64,000 bases of DNA from Spizellomyces punctatus DAOM BR117 (Eukaryota). Under the pieces are notes generated by a model. It was given only the letters and a program-made list of their open reading frames with translations. It ran no database searches and was not told where the DNA came from. The position numbers were made by a program, and so were the translations under genes. Positions 6,301 through 29,039 of the stretch are shown piece by piece. Numbering within the stretch: the stretch's first letter is position 1; each line of letters starts with the position of its first letter. The stretch lies in assembly GCA_000182565.2 (NCBI GenBank), contig KQ257468.1, one strand, 5' to 3'.

Positions 6301-9300
6301 CAGGATTGTGGGGATTATATTCAATGCTGCGATAGCAAGGTACGGCATGGTCGTGCTCTGCAATACACCGTGGAATTGAAGTTACTAAGAGGTGCAATAC
6401 AGGGTGCATGATATTGATAAAGCGGTAGCAGAAAGACATTTTGTCGTCCTTGCCTCCATGCGTCCTATAAGTACATTGATGGCAAGCAGCAAGCGGCGTG
6501 ATTCACATCATGATCCATTTTTACTCACGAAGGTATAATTACAATGTTCCTTGTTTCTTGCAATTGCTAAATGTGATCTCTTTTAAGATGGAACTAATGT
6601 CGAAGCCTCCATCGGGTACTTTCCGATCAAAACATTTCCAATTGGTTGTCGCGCAATTAGGCATGGAAGCATATTTCCTGCAATCAGATGAGCCAGGTGC
6701 CCCACCAGCTCAGGAACTTGATCATACAGACTGGCTGGAACGATTATTTCATGTCTGCCAATGTGCGACAGGCATGGAGCGATCTGCTGCTCCGACATCT
6801 GGTATACATGAGTGTTCAATGGTTTCATCGCTTGAACCGCTTTTGAGGGACGGTTTCTTCCTATTAAGGTTCTCCTGATGTCGTCCGAATTGATACATGG
6901 GAAGATCCTCTCCTTTTTTGGGCGCTGTGGGAAAGTGCCCGTTACTGTGTGTTGTCGAGGTTGCGAACACCGCTTGGGTCTCCGGTGCAGGTTAGTGCCG
7001 CATCAGTTCCCTCCTTCCTTATTTTGTGCAGCTTTATTGAAATCCCTTGAAGACGTTCGCGAGTATCGAAAGAGTATTGAAAGATTCAGTTGCAAATTTC
7101 GGTCGCCAGGCAGTACGCCCTGGAGATACCAATGAGCACTTACCAGCAACGTACGTGTGCAAACGTTTAGCGTCTTCGTGTCTCGTGAACTCAGCGGTTT
7201 CCAGCTTGATTAAGGACGCTCAACGGCTCCGACATCTACTCATGCTTATTGATTTACTGGAGATTCAAATTCGCAATGCTGCAGAAGGGGCTTACCACGC
7301 CTCTCCTGCTTCAACGTTATTTTTTCATACAAACAAGCGCACATGCGACGAGTGGTTCATGAGGATTCGGAAACATTTAGTTGCTGGCGGAAAGCTTACA
7401 GGGTCGGCCGCGTTCACCATAAAACATGGCATGGAGGTGCGCAGAGCAAAGATATCCAGATGTCGTACGCTGAGGGGCTTATTCGTATGCGATTTTTTCT
7501 GGGGCAGTATCTTGCGGAGCGGTCGGCAAGCATTTTGCGACATGACAAAAACGATAAAGCTACCTTCGCCGCGGATATTGAGAGCGTCACTGTTGATATT
7601 TGTAAGATTGCAACGCTTCGTTATGTGCGCTGCAATTAAACTCAAGTGAAGAGTTTCTGGTGCTCAGGCGATGCGTTGGTCACTTACAAAGATGCCGATA
7701 CTGTGTATGGGATTGCTGCATGGTTAGAGAAGGTGATACCCCAACGTTCGGATGAGTTATCACCAAGTGACGGGCAGCCATGTAAGTTTAAGACAGTATC
7801 GGTCAAGGAAGTGTATCGTCACCGACAGTCTTCGTATACACCATTGCAGCTGTAAGGTTACTCAAAAAGTCCGACGTTCACAACAATGCGGGCGGTAGTT
7901 CCCCATTCTCTTTTACGTGGGCTCGAAGTGCTGCAGATATTGCTGAAGTGAGTGATAGCATGAGGCTTTTGGAAATTCATACGTAGCTGGAGCAAGGAAA
8001 TTACCCTTCAGGGTCGTTACGAAACTGCTCTTCCGGAACTCCGTAACAAGTTCCAGGCTTCTATCAAGGGGGGCAAGATATCTTTCACAAAGTCTTTCAG
8101 CAGCCTGGTTCAAAATGTAGGTCCTGAAACCTGCGAAATGGCCTTTCTGACACCTATTTACGCTCCGTTTTTATAGATTACGCGCTGCTACCTACAATTA
8201 CGTGACTGGGACGGTTTAGCTGAATGGAATGGCATGCTGAAAACAGTGAAACAAGATGCACTCCATAACAATGATACATCGCCGTTCGATCTTGACCATC
8301 ATCGAACAATCTTGTCCGCGTGGTCCGAACTCACAGACCCCTATCAAGATCTCAATTCTGATCGAGGATTGACTCTGGAGAATTCATTTGATATTGCCGG
8401 AATCCAACATGTAGGCCTTCCTGGTGCATATATGGCCAGAGCGGAAGGGCAGCTATGGAAGGCTCTCACCCTGATGAGAGCAGAGGATCTGCCTAGTGCC
8501 CAGGAGTATTTGGCTTCTGCCCTTGAGTTATTGAAACAGATTATAAAGTACCATCCGGAGACCTCGCCACACGATTTGACGTATTCACTTGTGCAAGTCC
8601 AACTCGCCAAATGGATTGAAAATATAAATCTGCCTGCCAAATCTGACTTAGCGGGGTTATTATCGGAATGCGACAATGACCGAGCGCTAGCTTCTCTGAG
8701 ATGCGCGGATTTGTCGACTTTGAATCTTTTGCACAACATTGTTACTGCTGTGCTGCAGACCAAATTGTCCGTCCTAGAAGGGGCACAGTTCGAGACAGCA
8801 AACGAAAACTTGCGCTTTTCTGTTGGCAGGTTAGCGCGAAAGAGTAAGAATTATGCTCTTGCTCGCAGAACGTCGAAGTCAGCGGACCACCTGGGCTTTT
8901 TTTCCCTTCAGGATCTTAAGAGTCGCTACGATTTTGCCAAATTGTTATATGCTGATGGAAAGGCGGTCGATGCGTTGCATGCGGTGTTGTCCACTTTGGA
9001 CAAGCTCGGCAGGCCCCGTGTGGATCAATTGCGGAATAACGGCCGTGCCGAGTCTGAGGAAGGCAGCTGTGCAGTGATGTACTCAAAGCACTTGCTGCTA
9101 TTATCAAAGTGGATCCAAGCATTCCAACTGAATACTTCAGAATGGCGCGCTGTCGAAGACGCCATCCGAAGCGCTGAAATTGCCAATGACGTTCGGGCTG
9201 CTGCTTCGGAAGAGAAATCACAGACGGCTTTCGTTGGCAGTATAGCCGAGCGCTGCCTTGTTACAGCGACGGCGCACACCCCGATGTATCCTAAAGCATG

Positions 9301-12300
9301 GTTGAACTACGGACATTTCTGCTATCATCAAGGCAGGAAAGCTCTTGAGGACATGACAGGAAAGCCATTCAAAGTACTGGAGTCATTCCCGCTCGAAATG
9401 AAATATATGTTTGAAGAACTAGCAAGGGCTTCTACGCCTCGCGAAGAGAATGTCAAGGTAACACTGATACTTCCTGTCTCCTCTTTGTCGATGTGGATTT
9501 AACCAAGTTCTCCATTGTGTAGGTTATTTTAGAAATTATTTCGCAGGAGCTCGTTAACAGCACAAAACAGAAACCTCGCGACGACCATCCGCCTTTGGAG
9601 GGAGTTCTACGTGCAACCTTCCCAGAGCTCGAGGTTGAGGCAATTGAAAAGATCGGATCCGCTATACGGGCTTTAAAGCATAGAGTGCTGGACCGCTTCT
9701 ACTCGGCAGCATCGGCTTATTTCAAATTCTTGGACGTTGCGAATGCGGCTCACGTTGCCTCGGTAAGTCTTGGGATATGAACTAGTCACAGGTCTATCTA
9801 ATTCTTGTGCTAACTATTCGCGTGCTCAGGACGCTGACAATACCACTGCCACTCTTCGCATTCTGCGATTATTTTTGAATATTGGGGCGTACTTCAAGGA
9901 GGACTTCACGCGCATGTTCGAAGCCACCCCTTTGGTACCCTGGGAAAGTGTTCTCCCGCAGCTTTATGCGCGCACCGACCATCCAGAGGCTTTTGTGCGA
10001 GATACCATTGCGGACTTGCTTTGTAAGATAGGAAAAACGTCCCCTCACCTGGTCGTTTATCATGCCGTCGTGGAGTCGTCAACGGAACAAGCCACATCGG
10101 CGGAGATTCATATGCCATGGTCCAAGCGTGTACTCCAAGTATTGAAACAAGGCGGCTCGGAAGGATTAGTAACAGAGGTCCAGCGCATGGTGAACGAACT
10201 CAAGAGGATGACTGTGCTATGGGAAGAAATGTGGCTCCACAAGTTGCGGCACCTGCATGTTGACGCAATAAAGCGACTGCAGCAGATCGAAAGAGAGGCA
10301 AATAGGGTTGGCGCAAGTGTGTCGCTGCCTGAAACGGAGAAGAACACCATCATTTTCGAGTACTATCAGACTATAACGAGACCATTAGTCACCGCTCTGG
10401 AAACCCTTCTGCGTACAACAACTTGCTCACCCTCCAGCACACCGCACGAATTCTGGTTTCAAGATACGTACGGGAAACGAATCAAAGATGCCCTATTGGC
10501 TCTACAAAGCCCGAAAGATCCGACAATGCCTAGAGCTGCTTGGACGGCTTTCGAAGAGGTACAGTTATCGTCCGGCTGCATTGGTAGCCATTTGACTGAC
10601 CGTAATTTTACAGATTCACGCTGATCTTTCTCGAGAATTGCAACGCAACCGGCAGCTCAAGCTATCGAACGTCAGCCCAGTCTTGGCAAGGTCCCGTGAT
10701 TCGATTATCCCTATGCCAGGCATGCCTGTGCACGACCGTTTAGTCACTATACGGAGGTTTAATCATGATCTTCACGTTCTACCAACAAAGACAAAACCAA
10801 AAAAGCTGGAATTGATGGGTTCCGACGGTGTGCGATACACTTACCTCTTCAAAGGCTTGGAAGACCTCCATTTAGACGAGCGAATCCAGCAACTTTTGCG
10901 AACAGTCAACCAATTTCTCACGCGAGACAAATCTTCCGCACATCGTGGGTTGCATGCTCGGACATATCCCGTCATTCCCTTCGGACAACGGTTTGGCATG
11001 ATTAAATGGGTCGATGATGTCATCCCACTGTTTAGTTTGTATAAGCGTTGGCAGCACCGCGAGTACACGGCGAAAATGCTGCAAAGAAAAGAGGGGGATC
11101 CACCACCCCCAAAACCTCACGAACAATATTATGCGAAGATAAGAGCCGGCCTGCAGCGTCACGGGTTGTCAAAAAAGGCGGCACGCCGAAACTGGCCATT
11201 AGATGTTATGCGCGAAGCATTTCAAGAATTGAAGAAGGAGACGCCCACCAATTTACTAGCCAGGGAACTCTCCGGATCATCTGCCACCCCTGCGGATTGG
11301 TGGCGAAAAACCAAGTCTTTTGTGCGATCAGTTGCCGTTATGTCTGTTATCGGCTACGTTATTGGCCTCGGAGATCGTCATCTTGATAACATACTACTAG
11401 ATCCCGTCACTGGGGAAGTCATTCACATTGATTACAATGTTTGCTTTGAAAATGGACGCAAATTACGGGTGCCTGAGACGGTACCGTTCAGGTTAACTCA
11501 GAATATCTTAGGAGCATTTGGTGTCACGGGGGTGGATGGAGTATTCAAGATTGCTTGCGAAAACACAATGCGCGTCATGCGTGAGAACCATAAAACGCTA
11601 TTAACGTTACTTGAAGCCTTTGTGTATGATCCGTTGGTGGACTGGACGAAGGATCAAGCTGGCGTCTTAAGTAAGCAAACACTTGAGGTGAACGTAAACA
11701 TCGGTCTTCTCTGTTCTCGGATTGGTAAGTGCAGCCATTGGTGGGAGGGCGCTATGTTTATGTTGCTCATACGTCAGGTCCCGTGTAGCGGAGAAAAGAG
11801 AACCAGTCGGCAAATATGTGCATGCGCTTCTCTCCACTTGTGGTAGTAATGTTGACGACCAGGCGTCTAAAGGGATCCAAGAATCCATTGCCATGCTGGC
11901 CATCACAGACGGTCGCAGCGGGCAAGCGAAAAAAATGACACATGTCAGCGATCAAGACAAAGAGGCTTCCTTACGCGATGCGTTGCAAAAGCGCTATGTC
12001 GACTGCGAGACCTGGATCGCCCGACACTCCGCGGCCTTGCTCACATTGAAGGTGAGGCTTCGTAAATCAACATAGGAAGAGGTTCTGTGCAATTCTCAAT
12101 CAAATCCAATTATTTCAGGGACCTTACCTGCAGAGATGTGCTGCGGATGTTCTGAATGTCGACCCTGTCAATGTTTTTCCTCCATTTGCCCCTACAACCT
12201 ACGCATTGGGCGCGAATGAAGGCCATATAATGCGCTGCGTGGAAGTTGACCAGGAGATATTCCGCGTAACTACTGAACGGGCTGCCTGTTATCAAGTCAT

Positions 12301-15300
12301 TGTGAAGCATTTGCAGATGTATCAAGTCCTTGCCGCTCCTGTAGCGGACCTACTCTTGAACCAGGATTACTTCCTGAAGTGGAAGGGCATTCTTCAGACA
12401 CTGATCTCCTCGGAGCTTGATCAAACCGCGATTCAGAGAGTTCTTTCTTCGAATTCGGATGTGACTCGTACTGAACAGACTAGAAAAGCCGCGCTTGAAG
12501 CCATCATGAAAACAACATGTCTAGCAAAGGAGGAAGAATATATGAAATGCAGCGCTGCAGTTACTGCAGTATCTCCTGAACCAGAAGCGGCAGGTCAAGA
12601 ACTCGGCATCTTCTCAAATATACACGCGTCAAAAAAGCCCGTCGTTTTAATTCAGTGCGCAATGCTGGATACTCTGGCGCATTTCGGCCATCTACTCTAC
12701 GTGCTTATTAAGGATCCATTGAAACGCGAATCAATATTTGCAAACGATAACTTTGGAATCCAGCGAATATCGCAAAGATCGGTCCACGTGTTTGGCGGGT
12801 ACCCGTTTGAGCCAGATAATCTTCATGAGGTGCATTCCATAGCGTCTTCGGCAGTTGTCGCCATCGAGGGATTGAATGGTAAGTTGCCACTATTGAGCGC
12901 TTCGATTAATGGCATAAATTTAATCAATCACCACTAGAATCTGCCCACAAATCTGGCGACACTACGGATTCTGATTCTCTTCAAGTTCTTCAGAATTACG
13001 TCGATCTGTTAGAATGCGTCAGAGCCATTCAATGGCACGTCGCCGACGTTCTTGTTCCTGAAGTCATCCTTATCTTAGCCCAAAAGGAAGACTCTTCCCT
13101 GCAAAGCCTCCTGACTGATCTGGAAAGACTATGTTCAGGTGTCGACAATACACTCGACCAGAGCTCGGAAGCATTCCAAACCGTCGCGGCGAAATTGGTA
13201 AGTATTCGAGCTTCGGCAGAACCCATTCGCTATCTAACGCAAGTGTAAGGGTGCGGAGTTTCCGGCTCTGTGCGCGGAATATGGTTCGCAACCTTCCACC
13301 GGTGCCCAGGCGATCCTGTCATCTTTCAATCATTTTTTCACCCCGATAGTAAACGGAATGCGCCATCTTCCTGGTCAGAAGGGTACCAATGAAGCGCAGA
13401 TTATTCACAACGCCCTCATGGTGCAACAGATACTGGTACGGGTCGTCTCTCGTTATCTGACAGCTGCGACTTTCGCAACTCACTGCCGAATAGTCCATTT
13501 TGCACATATTGCAGGCCTCCCAGCGTTACTACCAACAGGCTGAAATGGATACTGACGATCCGTCCAATGAATGGATTGCCAATTATGATTTTTGCGACAT
13601 TATGCGGGAGAGCGAGCATTTTGCAACAGCGACTGCGACATTGAAGCGGTATCTCGACATCTGCATCAGAGAAATATGCATGAAGCCTATGGCAAAGCTG
13701 TTTAATAAAAGCATAAAGCGCGTTGGTGGGACTCTGGGAAGTGAGCGTGCAAACGACCAAGAGAAATCCGGCCGTGCACTGATCGGAATACCGTTTGTTG
13801 ACCAAGCACATGCTCTGATCAATGCTCATGTTCCCTTCGATGGAGAGCTTCGTCAGCAATTGATGGCTCTCCAAGATCTCCTTTCCCGTGATGTTGAGCG
13901 ACGTGTCCAAATGGACATCAGCCAAAAAGTAACTGACAGCGGCAATCACTCCATTGTGTTGCATTATATAACCTTGTAATCCTAACTTCATAGGGGATCG
14001 GCCATCTTCGACGATTTGAGGCCCGACTACAGCAGCGTAAGCTGGCGTTAACTCGGTACCAGCTAGTGCACGAATCAGCCTTGACGTACCCTATACGACA
14101 TGGTGCGACTGAGGCACCCTTACCGATGGAGACTCCTCGCCTACAGGTACTATGCTATGATCACAGTCACTCCTTACTATTGGTATTAACGGCTAGATAT
14201 CGTAGTTCATTGAAAGTTTAAAACGCGATATGCCCCTTCTATTACAGCTCTGTAGTGATTTGCGCTCACTTGCGGGAGCCTGCCAGATTTTGGAGTCTGA
14301 GCTCGCGCCACTTCTCGCTTGGTCCTCGGCAGATTCTTCCAAAGAGCATGCAATTAGCGCGTTCGGAGACGCCTGCCGTACGCGCCATGCTCAAATCATG
14401 ATGGAGACTCAGCGGGTGAGTGGGGTGACCCAAAGGATTCTGTGATAGTCGTCTTAATATTTGCTATAACTAGATTCAAGACATTATCGAACTCTGCGAT
14501 ACCCTTGTTCACTTTGAAACATTTCGCGGTCCTGGTGGAAGGATGCAGTCGATGGAAAAAGATACGTTAGAACTGGTGGAAGCACTCAAACAAGTGGTGA
14601 ACAAGCCTAATTACACTGGGGTCTTGAAACCGAATTCGGGTGTGAGTGAAGATGAGCAAGTTTCTATACAGGTACTTGATTCGACGGTAAATCTCACGCC
14701 AGGAAATTGTAATAACGTTACATTTGTTTAGGAGAAACTACTAGCAGTACATCATGCCTATCAGAATTGTGACAGAGTACTTGAGGACATTCACAAGATC
14801 ATGAAGAATCTATACAAAACATCCGCAGTTCTTCCCTCTGCGAAGAACATGACAGCCGAGATACAGGTAGGTGTTGAGAGACCGCGCATAAATTGCACTC
14901 GTCCTCACACATCTGGTAGGAGTATCTGAGTCAATGGAGCCATTGCGGCCAGAAAATAAAGGGGCTTGAAGTGGCTTCACGGAACCCGCCCGACAGGACG
15001 TCCCTGGTAATAACTTGTTGACGCCTGGCCAGAATGGAAATGAAACTCATTCTTTTCTCTGATGTGCAGGAGAAAACGATGAACAAAATTCACTTGGAAG
15101 TCGAAAGGTGCATCAAGATGCTCTTCTCCTTCAGCTCACTGAAGCCGCTAGAGATCGCACTGGAGGCGGAACGAGAGGAACTGGCTCAGAGTCCATTGCA
15201 ATCTCCCACCGAAGAGAAACTGCCTGAATCCCTACCTACGCACGAATCAGACTGGCTGGCTTTGCAGCCACACCAGCCAATGGTCGTTCATGAGAGTGGA

Positions 15301-15796
15301 GATCCGCTAATGCTGGAGGATATGGTCGCCCACGATCTTCCTTCCCCAGATCAACCACAAGTGATTGCGACCGTGGAAGAGAGTCGCCGCACCGAGGCAA
15401 CTTCACTGCACCATTTCCAGCAAGATGGCGTCGTTGCGGTAGACATGGAGATTACGGAGGCACTTGCACAGACTGGTTGTGAGAGAGAATATGTCCCGCA
15501 GGGTGGGAACTTAATTTTTCACTTGGGAGGCGTATGTTTTCCGCTGACATGTTTGTGCTCAGGGGAAGAACGAAATGCGTATGCGATTCACGTGCTGCGC
15601 CGCGTCAAAGCAAAGTTGAGCGGACGCGATGCTATCGATCAGGGCAAGATGACAGTACCGGAACAGGTGAGCAGCGGTGAATATGTTTGCATGGCTGAGC
15701 TGTCTGACCTCCTTTCAGGTGGACATGATAGTAGGAGAAGCGACCAATATGGATAACCTGGCCGTTATGTACGAAGGTTGGATGTCGTGGTTCTAA
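3356..15796 (+). CDS. SMG1: SMG1, PIKK-family Ser/Thr kinase of nonsense-mediated decay; multi-exon
   Basis: Kinase exon has LPTKTKPKKL, YLFKGLEDLHLDERIQQ, GLGDRHLDN, IHIDYNVCFE and LRVPETVPFRLT. FRB-like TVLWEEMW precedes it. A long insertion separates the kinase from the FATC end ERNAYAIHVLRRVKAKLSG...NLAVMYEGWMSWF-stop (15796). The start at 3356 (MNYTRSGGRGRG, then intron 3417-3472) is less certain. Confidence 0.92.
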
Positions 15797-16855: not shown

Positions 16856-17667
16856 ATGGTTCGCTTAACACTCATAGCCGCTGCCGTGACTGCTGCACTG
16901 GCAGTTCTTAGCCCTGTCGCGGGAAGCGCGGATGGAAAAGACGCTGCGGAAGTTCCTCACAAGTGCCCCATCAGCGAAAAGGTACCAGCACCATTATTTG
17001 CAAAGTCAACCTTAAGGGCTGTCATTCTAATCATCTTGTAAATTCATTCATAGTGCCCTTATTATGAGGTAACTGGTTGGAATACACCGTGTACTATTCA
17101 GCAAACCGCTGATCTCGTCCTGACATCTGCGCAATGTAGCACGCAAAAGATACTGGAATGATAAAGTCAAGCGACGACAAGACAGCAACGAAAGGCTGTC
17201 CCTTGAAAGAAAAGGGCTGTCCGTACTATGAAAAGCACAAGGGTGACCACAATCTCGTCGACGCCCTTGTAACCGAGAATGACGATTGTCCTCTGGCTTC
17301 AAAGTGCAAATTCTACCAGGTGTGTATTTTGACTGTCCAAGGTCTCATGATGAACTACTGATAAGGTCTGTAGGATGTGAAAGACGGAACTGCCTCTGCC
17401 GTGAACTTCAACAAATCCGACTGTCCCCTTGCGCACAAGTGCCCCTACTATGATGAACTGAAGAAGAATGGCTCGACCACAGCAACCGATTGCCCAGTCC
17501 TTCACGCTTGTCCTCACTTTAGCAAAAAGGATTTGGAAACACAGCCGCACGTAGGGGGTCATCCCCATGGTCACGCGCATAAAGGTCATGAATGTCCGTT
17601 CATCGCAAAGAAGAAGGCGGAAGAGGCCCTGGAAGCAGAGAAGGTGCATGTCAAGGACGAATTGTGA
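16856..17667 (+). CDS. Uncharacterised 204-aa secretory-pathway protein: signal peptide, five CPx4-5C(P/K)(Y/H/F)(Y/F) repeats, His-rich segment, C-terminal KDEL
   Basis: Exons 16856-16981, 17054-17068 (15-nt microexon, CPYYE), 17140-17319 and 17374-17667 join in frame through GT-AG introns. N-terminus is hydrophobic (MVRLTLIAAAVTAALAVLSPVAG) and the protein ends KDEL-stop. Confidence 0.82.
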
Positions 17668-17754
17668 GCTTACGCAAGGGATCGTACTTTTCAGCTGAAG
17701 TAACCTGTATAACATGTATTACGTCCAAACGTTGTGACCTGAGAAAATAAATGT

Positions 17755-18971
<1,217 letters not shown>

Positions 18972-25840: not shown

Positions 25841-25917
25841 TATTCAGTGTACTGGAGCTAGCCGACTACATTGTTGAATATTAGTCGGCTTTTGTTTGTA
25901 ATGATTGGAATGAATGA

Positions 25918-26110
25918 ATGGATGGATGGATGGATGGATGGATGGATGGATGGATGGATGGATGGATGGATGGATGGATGGATGGATGGATGGATGGATG
26001 GATGGATGGATGGATGGATGGATGGATGGATGGATGGATGGATGGATGGATGGATGGATGGATGGATGGATGGATGGATGGATGGATGGATGGATGGATG
26101 GATGGATGGA
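25918..26110. repeat. Perfect (GGAT/ATGG)n tetranucleotide microsatellite, about 48 units
   Basis: Directly visible tandem repeat, preceded by degenerate GAAT units. Confidence 0.99.
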
Positions 26111-26183
26111 GTGTGTATTCAACCACTGCGTCATGGTCTTCGCAATGACATTGCAGCACACAGTACCATCCACGTAAGACTTC

Positions 26184-29039
26184 ATGGAGAGCCTATTCTC
26201 GCCACGGGTGGATTTTGAGGATATTGTAGAGTATGCGATCTACAATGATTTCGGTGACCATAGTGGTATAGGTTCTGAGGAGTTGCGGAAAGCTGCACAG
26301 GATTTCGCAGCCGTCACCCAATCCTTCATTTCCCAATGGACCAATGGCTATATATGGCACAAAGATCCATTTGAGTTGAGCGTTGTGACAACAAAAGGTG
26401 CGTTGCCTATGCAAAGGCTGTCATCGATCGGTCTAGAATGCACAGATCCTTAAAATGGAGACTGAAAACCAAACCGGAAGCTAAGCCTGTGTGAAGACTT
26501 GGTCGCACCTTTTCTGCAGGGGAGGACCCGCCACGGTGATGGAGTTGAGGATGAGTGGTTCATTGTGTCGCTCTTACGTGAGCTGACGATACAGTTTCCG
26601 GAGGCAGTAGTGAGGTAAGTCGCTTATGCTGTTCAAAATCTGTTACCTGACCCGCTAGAGTTTATCTCATCCGTACTCCCAAGCGTACGGGACAATGATG
26701 GTGAGATCTTGCTGATTGAAGCTGCCGAGCATATTCCGCCGTGGTTGGATCCCAGTACCAGCCAGAACAGAGTACGTCTTGCGAACCCTCAACTTAACTT
26801 TTGCAGAGCCCCATCCCATTTAATGTCATTCTATCATACAGGTATTTCTTCACAAGGGTCTCGTTCACATCATTCCTATACCGCAAAATCCAGCCGAGAT
26901 TGTTTTGTATCCATCTGGACCCATCACACTAAATCGGGCACTTGATTTGGTGAGAGGGTCCGCACCGACTGAAGCACCGAAAAACGTTCAGGCAGCTATA
27001 ATGGCAAGGCTGGCGCGGTAAGAAAGGTTCTAGAGGTGTCCTTTCTATCAAATACCCCTAATCGGCCATGTCTCCGTCAGCTATCCTCAAGGTGCCAAAG
27101 AGAATATTCATCGCGCGAGATGTTATATTCCTCGGCCCGTAGCACATCTTCTGCACCATGACCCTCAGCTAGTAGCTTCCGCGGTCGAAGCATTCTACCT
27201 ACGTGATCCAATAGCAATGAAGGTTGGTCTTGGTCATGGGTTTTCTCGGGCATCTTCTCACAAGGACTCGATTGTAGGCATGCTATAAAATGGAGAAATT
27301 TCCGCCAACAAACAATGTGATGGTAACGGTTCGTATGAACCGCACCCATTACGCTCAGCTTGTCAGTCAAAAGTTCCACCCGCCGAAACCTTTTCGCTTA
27401 CCCCCAATATCATCTCCGAACTTTAAAGCGTGCGAACTTGGCATGAAGCTTGTAGGTTATCTTTGAAATTTTAGGTCGCAACCCTTACTGAACGATATAG
27501 CTAGGCGTGCGGATTCGAAATGCTTTGTGCCGATCGACACCTTCGGAGTTCTTCGAAACACAATGGACATCGTTCAGTTGATGTGCGTATAGCTTAGGCA
27601 CAAGTTTCGTGTCTGAGGGCCTGACACTTCACCTTGCAGACATACGCGTTCGAGGTGGACCCTGAATGGCAGGCCTTCCTAAGGAGGTTAGACAAGCTGA
27701 GCTATTTTGGGGTAGGTTCGAGTGCTGTCCAATTCTGCGAAGTCTTGAGGTTGATAAAGCGACTTCAACTATCAGAAAGAACTCCCCGGATCAGAGCTGT
27801 ACAAACAGCTGGAGAATACTGCGAAGAAACAATACCTACAGGCCAAATTCAGCGAGAGGTGGGATTTATGGGGCGTCAAATTTCCCTCTCCTGCTGTATT
27901 ATAACGACACTCGGTTTTAATTAGCGAAGTTTTCGGGGAAAATCCGATTGACAAGATAGAATATATTCTCAACCAACCTTTGGAGGATGAAAGTAACTTA
28001 TCTCAAGAACCAGAGGACAACGACAAGTGGATGGAAGTAGATCCGGCCAACTTAGATCGAATGTTTGATGAAGAAAAGCTCAAGATGTCAGCTGATGATT
28101 GGGAAGAGTTAAATCAGGAAGATCTGGTTGGTGCCCGAGAATCTCGTAAAAAAGTTATGTATCTAATGACCTAGTTGTGTTGTAGTCGGATCTTGATGAT
28201 GAAGAGAAGCATGATATGGAGGAGCTGTCGAAAATGTTCGGAGGCTTCACATCTTTTGTCGAGAAGGAGAGCGGACTCGGAGGAGTTGTGTTTCCACAGT
28301 ACGTTTGGGTAAAAAAGAAAATGGCGCAGCCAGTTGATGGACTCATCCGACTTTGGTTGATCCTCCAGTGAGAGAGATTTCGAAGAACAGGAAGACACAG
28401 ATGAGGAGGATACTCCTCTCAGATTTGAGGAGGGACAGTTTCTTCAGTCTATGATGGACGTACTAGGTGAGTAGAAGGACTGGCAACAGTATGTAGACTC
28501 AATTGTGATGGTGATGCTGTCATAGGTATCAATCGAGACGACTTTGATCGGATAACAAAAAGCAAAGGTAGTGGTTAGATGCTTACAAAAGTCTGCTGCT
28601 CTGTCTAAATCCACTTTATTTCCCAGCATCTGGAAATACCACTTTTTCAACAGCGGAGGACGTCCTTCGACCAATTGAGCGCGTCATGCCTAGTGTATCA
28701 TTTGATCTAGATGACAGCGAAGAACGCAAAACTGACGAAGCCAGTGAATTCGCGGACACTCCTGCTCCCGATGCGCAGCTTGAGTCTTACATGGACTCGA
28801 TGGATCGCGAACTCTCGCGGACCAAACTCGGCGATGATTTTGAGAAAATCACGTCGGAGGGGCCCAGCATCTCGGTTGTCAATGAGGAAGGGGAGGAGGA
28901 ACTGCAAAAGGTCGATTTAGATTTTAATTTGGTCAAAAATATTCTCGAGTCGTTCTCCGCTCAGGAGGGCCTTCCAGGTCCCGCTTCGAGCATATTAAAC
29001 TCCATGGGCATCGGGCTTCCACCCAAGCGAAGGAAGTGA
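26184..29039 (+). CDS. ECD: Ecdysoneless / hSGT1-family protein; multi-exon
   Basis: [63 protein letters not shown] and the C-terminal [26 protein letters not shown]. Confidence 0.9.

Follow-up and report, generated by a model that had tools for sequence, protein, structure and literature searches.

ZIP7 and yeast Yke4 are zinc transporters of the endoplasmic reticulum (ER) (PMC5666860, PMC4196481); ZIP N-termini point away from the cytosol (PMC4196481), and the motif HEXPHE is the signature of the LIV-1 group (PMC9861476). According to PMC13287676, ZIP7 keeps the labile zinc of the ER at about 10 pM, and oxidative folding by Ero1-PDI is inhibited when zinc is in excess, while PMC5666860 poses the existence of zinc chaperones or buffers in the early secretory pathway as an open question. 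Two kinds of proteins offer a comparison: ERp44, a soluble early-secretory resident that binds Zn2+ and is retrieved via KDEL receptors (PMC13287676, PMC6363758), and the metallothioneins, described as cytosolic (PMC13287676). An extracytoplasmic domain of LIV-1 ZIPs may also exist as a separate protein, the prion protein family being presented as descendants of ZIP ectodomains (PMC9861476). We report here on SPPG_08063, a gene at positions 16,856 to 17,667 of a 64,000-nucleotide stretch (the window) of contig KQ257468.1 (assembly GCA_000182565.2) from the chytrid Spizellomyces punctatus DAOM BR117. Its four exons on the + strand encode a protein of 204 amino acids (aa) with 11 Cys, 10 of them in Cys-Pro (CP) dipeptides, and a KDEL end. 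With a little less than even confidence, we read this protein as a soluble, redox-sensitive buffer or shuttle of the ER lumen for a metal, most likely Zn2+; we rate its undescribed family as a proposed Cys-rich metal buffer in a compartment where the searches made found no dedicated one.

The SPPG_08063 gene and its product

SPPG_08063 is a real, spliced and expressed gene. In one contig of an RNA library (X1, depth 5), exon 1 is followed by a microexon, exon 3 and exon 4, which supports the exon chain of the first-pass annotation, an earlier reading of the letters alone that had named RNA support as a test; the conceptual product of the spliced exons matches the deposited protein residue for residue. 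On the sense strand, the 3' end of the gene has raw reads of run X9 at a depth of up to 153, with no junction of SPPG_08063 listed, and the RNA contigs of X4 and X5 over the gene are unspliced. As intron 1 stays open in frame but holds no Cys-Pro unit, its splicing is required to obtain unit 1. The gene is single-copy, no paralog having been found in the S. punctatus genome. Its features are the following:

16856..16981, + strand, exon 1, aa 1-42: signal peptide, then the first Cys-Pro of unit 1; the joint at 16981 is in RNA contig X1
16856..16930, + strand, predicted signal peptide, about aa 1-25, from hydropathy and from the hydrophobic N-terminus of relatives
16982..17053, + strand, intron 1, 72 nt, GT..AG, phase 0
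17054..17068, + strand, exon 2, a 15-nt microexon encoding CPYYE, the second half of unit 1; its letters sit between the two sides of the joint in contig X1
17069..17139, + strand, intron 2, 71 nt, GT..AG, phase 0
17140..17319, + strand, exon 3, aa 48-107
17197-17238, + strand, unit 2, in exon 3, with C67, C74 and the conserved H80
17287-17316, + strand, unit 3, in exon 3, with C97 and C103
17320..17373, + strand, intron 3, 54 nt, GT..AG, phase 0, seen as a 54-nt skip in X1
17374..17667, + strand, exon 4, aa 108-204 and stop
17422-17451, + strand, unit 4, in exon 4, with C124 and C130
17467-17475, + strand, N-glycosylation sequon (N139), in exon 4
17491-17520, + strand, unit 5, in exon 4, with C147 and C153
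17548..17601, + strand, His-rich stretch ending in the lone eleventh Cys, itself in a CP (C181), from the sequence
17653..17664, + strand, KDEL ER-retrieval signal, from the sequence

The signal peptide was called by hydropathy only, the window mean reaching 2.1 at the N-terminus vs at most 0.8 at the other sampled windows; no further membrane segment follows, as in ER-resident soluble proteins. From what is known of such signals, SPPG_08063 should enter the ER and be brought back there by the HDEL/KDEL receptor. Cys make up 5% of the protein (11/204), spaced by 5 to 6 residues, with Tyr and Phe plentiful; at the protein's own Pro frequency, the chance that at least 10 of 11 Cys precede a Pro is 4e-11. 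The CP dipeptides have a hydrophobic or aromatic follower, as in heme-regulatory motifs, and there is no thioredoxin-type CXXC. The spliced translation bears out the first-pass description throughout, from the signal peptide and the 11 Cys with 10 CP to the five units, the His-rich tail and the KDEL.

An undescribed family in chytrids and Glomeromycota

A profile search, of the kind that the same annotation had proposed, did bring in relatives from chytrids and Glomeromycota. The family searches gave 27, 95 and 6 proteins, amounting to 117 distinct identifiers that include fragments and a few remote or chance matches; names were looked up for 25 proteins only, and the taxonomic range may be wider. 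Chytrid members come from Geranomyces, Powellomyces, Rhizophlyctis, Chytriomyces, Clydaea, Nowakowskiella, Synchytrium, Quaeritorhiza and others, and Glomeromycota members from Dentiscutata, Ambispora and Geosiphon. An xxEL end is found in 56/117 hits (HDEL being the commonest), a hydrophobic N-terminus in 54/117 and both in 30/117, most of the hits that do not have both being fragments; the ER-luminal location put forward in the first pass is thereby supported across relatives.

All 11 Cys are invariant across the seven closest proteins and, among the 30 proteins bearing both signals, the single-module chytrid-type ones (16/16) have exactly 11 Cys, arranged as five pairs and a lone one, nine longer proteins have 21 to 44 and five short Glomeromycota-type proteins have 8 to 10; in some chytrids the modules of the CP array are multiplied two- to four-fold, which brings the count up to 44 Cys. 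Pro comes directly after Cys in 460 of 499 cases (92%), the residue after CP is mostly Tyr, Leu, His, Val or Phe, and the one before Cys mostly Lys or Gly. Cys-Cys intervals are of 5 residues in 170 cases and of 6 in 37, the next Cys beyond a unit lying mostly 13-27 residues away. A His follows unit 1 in 12, unit 2 in 15 and unit 5 in all of the 16 complete single-module proteins, all of which also have 2 to 6 His in the interval corresponding to the His-rich stretch. Synchytrium and Glomeromycota members have linkers as well as units in common (0/200 linker shuffles reach the real score). Taken as sequences, these Cys-Pro repeat proteins are supported as an undescribed family that keeps a signal peptide, an 11-Cys module and a retrieval signal.

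No match naming a CP-repeat family was obtained in Pfam, in NCBIfam (6 proteins) or among PDB sequences, and ESM Atlas gave no usable feature match and structures of TM 0.33 at most, in line with the earlier statement that the family was not recognised. Structure prediction, another check proposed there, was only partly informative: each Cys pair is followed by a short helix in the AlphaFold2 model, whose confidence is low (pLDDT 56.7) and was not raised by a deeper, 54-row alignment (55.7 vs 56.7). With this low-confidence model, Foldseek returned 0 matches and a wide VIA-align search a best Z of 2.3, so that no fold match came out of it. Pattern matches to the CP unit in viral contigs (56) and in prokaryote genomes (12) were not confirmed as relatives in any case. 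In a literature library in which most subscription papers are missing, no paper on the locus tag SPPG_08063 or on such a family was found; supplements were unsearched, and expression tables may list the gene.

Several candidate assignments were discarded. The UniRef label of P0005, C2H2-type domain-containing, is not backed by Pfam, zf-C2H2 matching none of the seven members at E up to 1. A PDI/thioredoxin family membership was set aside given the missing CXXC and the lack of Pfam or PDB sequence matches. Fusions with an RRM (P0018) and with Ulp1 (P0036) are single cases where a cytosolic domain replaces the signal peptide, probably by merging of gene models, and P0116 (E 9e-4) was treated as a chance repeat match. 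P0063, P0102, P0104 and P0114, amoebozoan and other CPxFxxGCP arrays, have the unit in common, not the linkers (14 to 94/200 shuffles reach the score), and were considered remote look-alikes; for P0109, 1/200 shuffles reach the real score. P0063, P0109 and P0104 are related CP-x6-CP arrays without a Pfam family, including proteins of Planoprotostelium (about 20 units, labelled erythrocyte binding protein) and Vermistella. In P0102 and P0114, on short contigs, remote CP-pair arrays precede a SnoaL-like domain, matched by Pfam at E 8e-5 in P0114 and judged by eye in P0102; P0114 bears a signal peptide.

The CP unit on zinc transporters and the proposed role of SPPG_08063

Three profile hits, P0053 (E 9e-22; a cluster of three members), P0101 (3e-7) and P0115 (7e-4; two members), have a CP array between their signal peptide and a Pfam Zip domain. 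HEXPHE is present in all three; P0115 and P0119 read HEIPHEVSD, where Ser replaces the Gly of HEXPHEXGD. The CPxxxxCP[Y/H] unit thus forms the N-terminus of the ZIP7/Yke4-type fusion proteins P0053, P0101 and P0115/P0119, a part that, from the known orientation of ZIPs, is expected to face the ER lumen. Among the sequences compared, a ZIP7/Yke4-type zinc transporter is the only recurring, well-supported fusion partner of the CP array. One has to keep in mind that the label of the fusions is a probable one, based on the motif and on His-rich relatives, the rows of the tree below being metagenome loci with no PDB chain matched.

We compared the fusions with 80 ZIP7/Yke4-type loci, the best of 330 loci confirmed in a scan with the fusion alignment. 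At least 8 His are present at the N-terminus in 50 of the 51 non-fungal ZIP7-type loci having at least 50 in-frame N-terminal residues (about 45 distinct). At least one C[P/S] followed by a hydrophobic residue precedes the first membrane segment in 17 of 19 fungal-type Yke4 loci (L018-L033, L078), and the remaining two are truncated; three such units occur in L033, and L018 has one within a His-rich tract. We built a tree of 32 loci hand-picked from the 80, together with the four fusion rows and a ZupT-like row of S. punctatus. The fusions come out in three separate positions, and 0/200 bootstrap trees join them; the outgroup and L030 have very long branches and the root is not fixed, and a single gain of the array followed by losses may also be compatible with the tree. 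When sequences were shuffled while keeping each Cys and its next residue, 0/200 reached the real score for each fusion, so that the match goes beyond the spacing of CP, whereas shuffling linkers only, with units kept, let 8, 12 and 39 of 200 reach it (P0053, P0101 and P0115, respectively). The repeat unit is hence common to the free protein and the fusions, with weak support for a colinear origin of the whole module in a ZIP7 domain.

The first-pass annotation had put forward an undescribed ER heme buffer or chaperone, with a metal or redox buffer as its second option. Its ER-luminal and undescribed-family parts stood; the heme part did not go beyond motif likeness. In the heme reading, the Cys of each CP would bind ferric heme with a nearby His as second ligand, for delivery to secretory hemoproteins, and the array on ZIP7 would be a heme or iron sensor. 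It draws on the 92% of Cys engaged in CP, with hydrophobic or aromatic followers and Lys or Gly before, and on faint matches to the Pfam Preseq_ALAS family (E 0.055 to 0.25), given by four of the seven members, with a best E of 0.12, and by exon 4 at E 0.055; these stay under the cut-off, with 14.3 vs 21 bits. Heme-regulatory motifs do bind heme by Cys-Pro, often with a distal His (PMC8808069), and PMC4045156, in 2014, described heme as having no known way into the secretory pathway and proposed luminal chaperones. However, in HO-2, heme buffering was unchanged by mutation of the CP cysteines (PMC8808069), and CP motifs figure as a thiol/disulfide switch in the reference list of the same paper, a switch that an oxidising lumen would tend to close. 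Moreover, only 2/16 single-module proteins have a Pro after the second Cys in unit 3, and no fusion with a heme enzyme was found among 18 longer or odd hits (Pfam scan) or the 6 hits of the longer-protein search. We consider the heme reading doubtful, and favor the metal buffer over it because the array is repeatedly and reliably fused to one kind of partner only, the ZIP7/Yke4-type zinc transporter.

The preference for a metal buffer also derives from the units taking, on some ZIP7-type transporters, the place of the His-rich tract of animal and protist ZIP7s, from the His after units 1, 2 and 5, and from the odd number of Cys (11), which leaves one thiol unable to pair within the chain. After entry into the ER and retrieval via KDEL, the five units, the His-rich stretch and the lone Cys would be exposed to the lumen. 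Zn2+ would be bound via the Cys thiolates of the CPxxxxCP units, with assistance from nearby His, each unit possibly folding around the metal as a short Cys-turn-Cys-helix knuckle, and luminal zinc would be buffered or handed on. Oxidation of Cys pairs to disulfides would free the metal, and the buffer might track the redox state of the ER. As excess zinc blocks Ero1-PDI folding, a luminal sink would be useful, most of all where no exporter is found.

This last point matters in S. punctatus, where an exon-by-exon search of a possibly incomplete assembly brought up no Yke4/ZIP7, whether by five protein queries, by Pfam Zip or by a motif pattern. The five queries retrieved ZupT/Zrt3-like loci alone, 20-34% identical, and Pfam Zip five loci of other ZIP types, none with HEXPHE. 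S. punctatus is probably devoid of Yke4/ZIP7; genes for CDF-family transporters are present, none of them assigned to the ER. In such a fungus, the free protein could help hold labile ER zinc low.

A number of observations weigh against a zinc buffer. With ZIP7 probably missing from the genome, SPPG_08063 would not be a dedicated ZIP7 partner in S. punctatus. The fusion is rare: the array is in 0/80 of the other ZIP7/Yke4-type loci (best profile E 0.08), and P0053 is the sole fusion among the 6 hits of the longer-protein search. The frequent linker-shuffle scores were given above. Pro after 92% of Cys is the signature of heme motifs and unnecessary for zinc sites; no His follows unit 3 in 15/16 and unit 4 in 16/16 proteins, and four of the five short Glomeromycota-type proteins have an even number of Cys. 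The region upstream of SPPG_08063 has no conspicuous zinc-response motif, consensus promoter words being at about chance level in a comparison where the upstream regions of two Zrt-like genes were placed only roughly. Finally, in the oxidising lumen of the ER, the two Cys of a C-x5-C pair can become linked by a disulfide.

In a disulfide reading, the protein would bind neither metal nor heme; its five C-x5/6-C loops would store redox equivalents or provide a structural scaffold or holdase, its lone Cys forming mixed disulfides with PDI-family proteins or a homodimer. The fixed Cys-Cys spacing suits local loops in such a lumen, and the luminal J-protein ERdj3 is said to have zinc-type Cys motifs oxidised to disulfides; plasma-membrane LIV-1 ZIPs bear a CPALLY motif thought to be disulfide-linked (PMC9861476). 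A disulfide role nevertheless leaves unexplained the conserved His, the strict Pro after Cys and the position of the array where other ZIP7s have a His-rich tract, and the protein has no thioredoxin-type CXXC; we regard it as unlikely.

The identity of the metal is not fixed, as ZIP7/13-class transporters can move iron too (PMC4132284). A store or detoxifier for another soft metal in the secretory pathway (Cu, Cd, Fe or an Fe-S cluster) would be compatible with the Cys/His inventory, which fits Cu(I) or Cd(II), and multiplied modules in some chytrids are as expected for capacity. The CP unit may also resemble the C-terminal half of the Fe-S motif of endonuclease III. Against this, the fusion partner is of a zinc-transporter class and the gene is single-copy, beside unrelated housekeeping genes; such a role seems improbable.

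Keeping a zinc buffer as the preferred reading, the observations can be joined in a broader scenario, which we find rather unlikely as a whole: early-diverging fungi would have a dedicated ER-luminal zinc buffer or chaperone, the CP module being the luminal sensing or capture domain of an ancestral Yke4/ZIP7 that also exists as a free KDEL protein; after loss of the transporter, the latter would shield oxidative folding from zinc, freeing metal as Cys pairs oxidise, and Dikarya-type Yke4s would keep one vestigial Cys-Pro. Since the protein is small, soluble and single-copy, both the luminal zinc-buffer and the luminal heme-delivery questions are addressable by one binding experiment. The fusion also draws attention to a Cys-Pro that fungal Yke4-type transporters bear at their luminal end and that had been overlooked, and the family extends to arbuscular mycorrhizal fungi, which handle zinc for plants.

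Genomic surroundings and comparison with known systems

The neighbours of SPPG_08063, a large kinase gene on one side and a QPRTase gene converging on it from the other, give no functional hint:

8177-15756, + strand, large multi-exon gene of a PI3K-like protein kinase, upstream of SPPG_08063
17700-18970, - strand, nicotinate-nucleotide pyrophosphorylase gene (QPRTase_C, E 6e-21), convergent with SPPG_08063

From its translation, we take the kinase to resemble SMG1. QPRTase reads overlap the 3' end of the SPPG_08063 transcript at about 17707-17840, and 7 reads show splicing of the last QPRTase intron (67 nt, near 17840-17906). Further along the window, a long tetranucleotide microsatellite within 25844-26239 reads as HPSI repeats on the - strand.

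Among known systems, CCCH zinc fingers come close by spacing, as the C-x5-C-x4/5-H of units 1 and 2 resembles the second half of the finger. Their ligand set is C-x8-C-x5-C-x3-H and CCCH proteins are nucleocytoplasmic RNA binders; the first Cys is missing here, each unit has two Cys only and zf-CCCH_AtC3H23 is matched by a single member out of seven (E 0.0085), and we did not retain this assignment. The heme-regulatory motifs of ALAS and HO-2 share the Lys/Gly-Cys-Pro-aromatic context; they number one to three, on cytosolic or mitochondrial enzymes, whereas in SPPG_08063 paired CPs make up the whole luminal protein.

In its mode of action, SPPG_08063 may be comparable to a metallothionein or to the zinc-binding side of ERp44. 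Metallothioneins are alike in being small, Cys-rich and, for SPPG_08063, of low predicted order without ligand, with a metal-buffer role in our proposal. However, metallothioneins have about 20-30% Cys, dense CC/CxC motifs and few aromatics, and SPPG_08063, with its lower Cys content, C-x5/6-C pairs accompanied by Tyr/Phe, signal peptide and KDEL, and no Pfam match, falls outside their definition. ERp44 has the same kind of residence, but it is a PDI-family chaperone and no likeness to SPPG_08063 was found in sequence or fold. Prion proteins offer a precedent for a stand-alone ZIP ectodomain, but on the ZIP5/6/10 branch and at the cell surface, a parallel that does not imply sequence likeness. 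As for the luminal N-terminal domain of ZIP7/Yke4 (LIV-1, SLC39A7/KE4 type), its typical versions are His-rich without the array, and SPPG_08063 lacks a membrane domain and carries a terminal KDEL; the two would nevertheless sit in the same compartment, and in P0053, P0101 and P0115/P0119 this domain is built of the very CP unit that makes up SPPG_08063.
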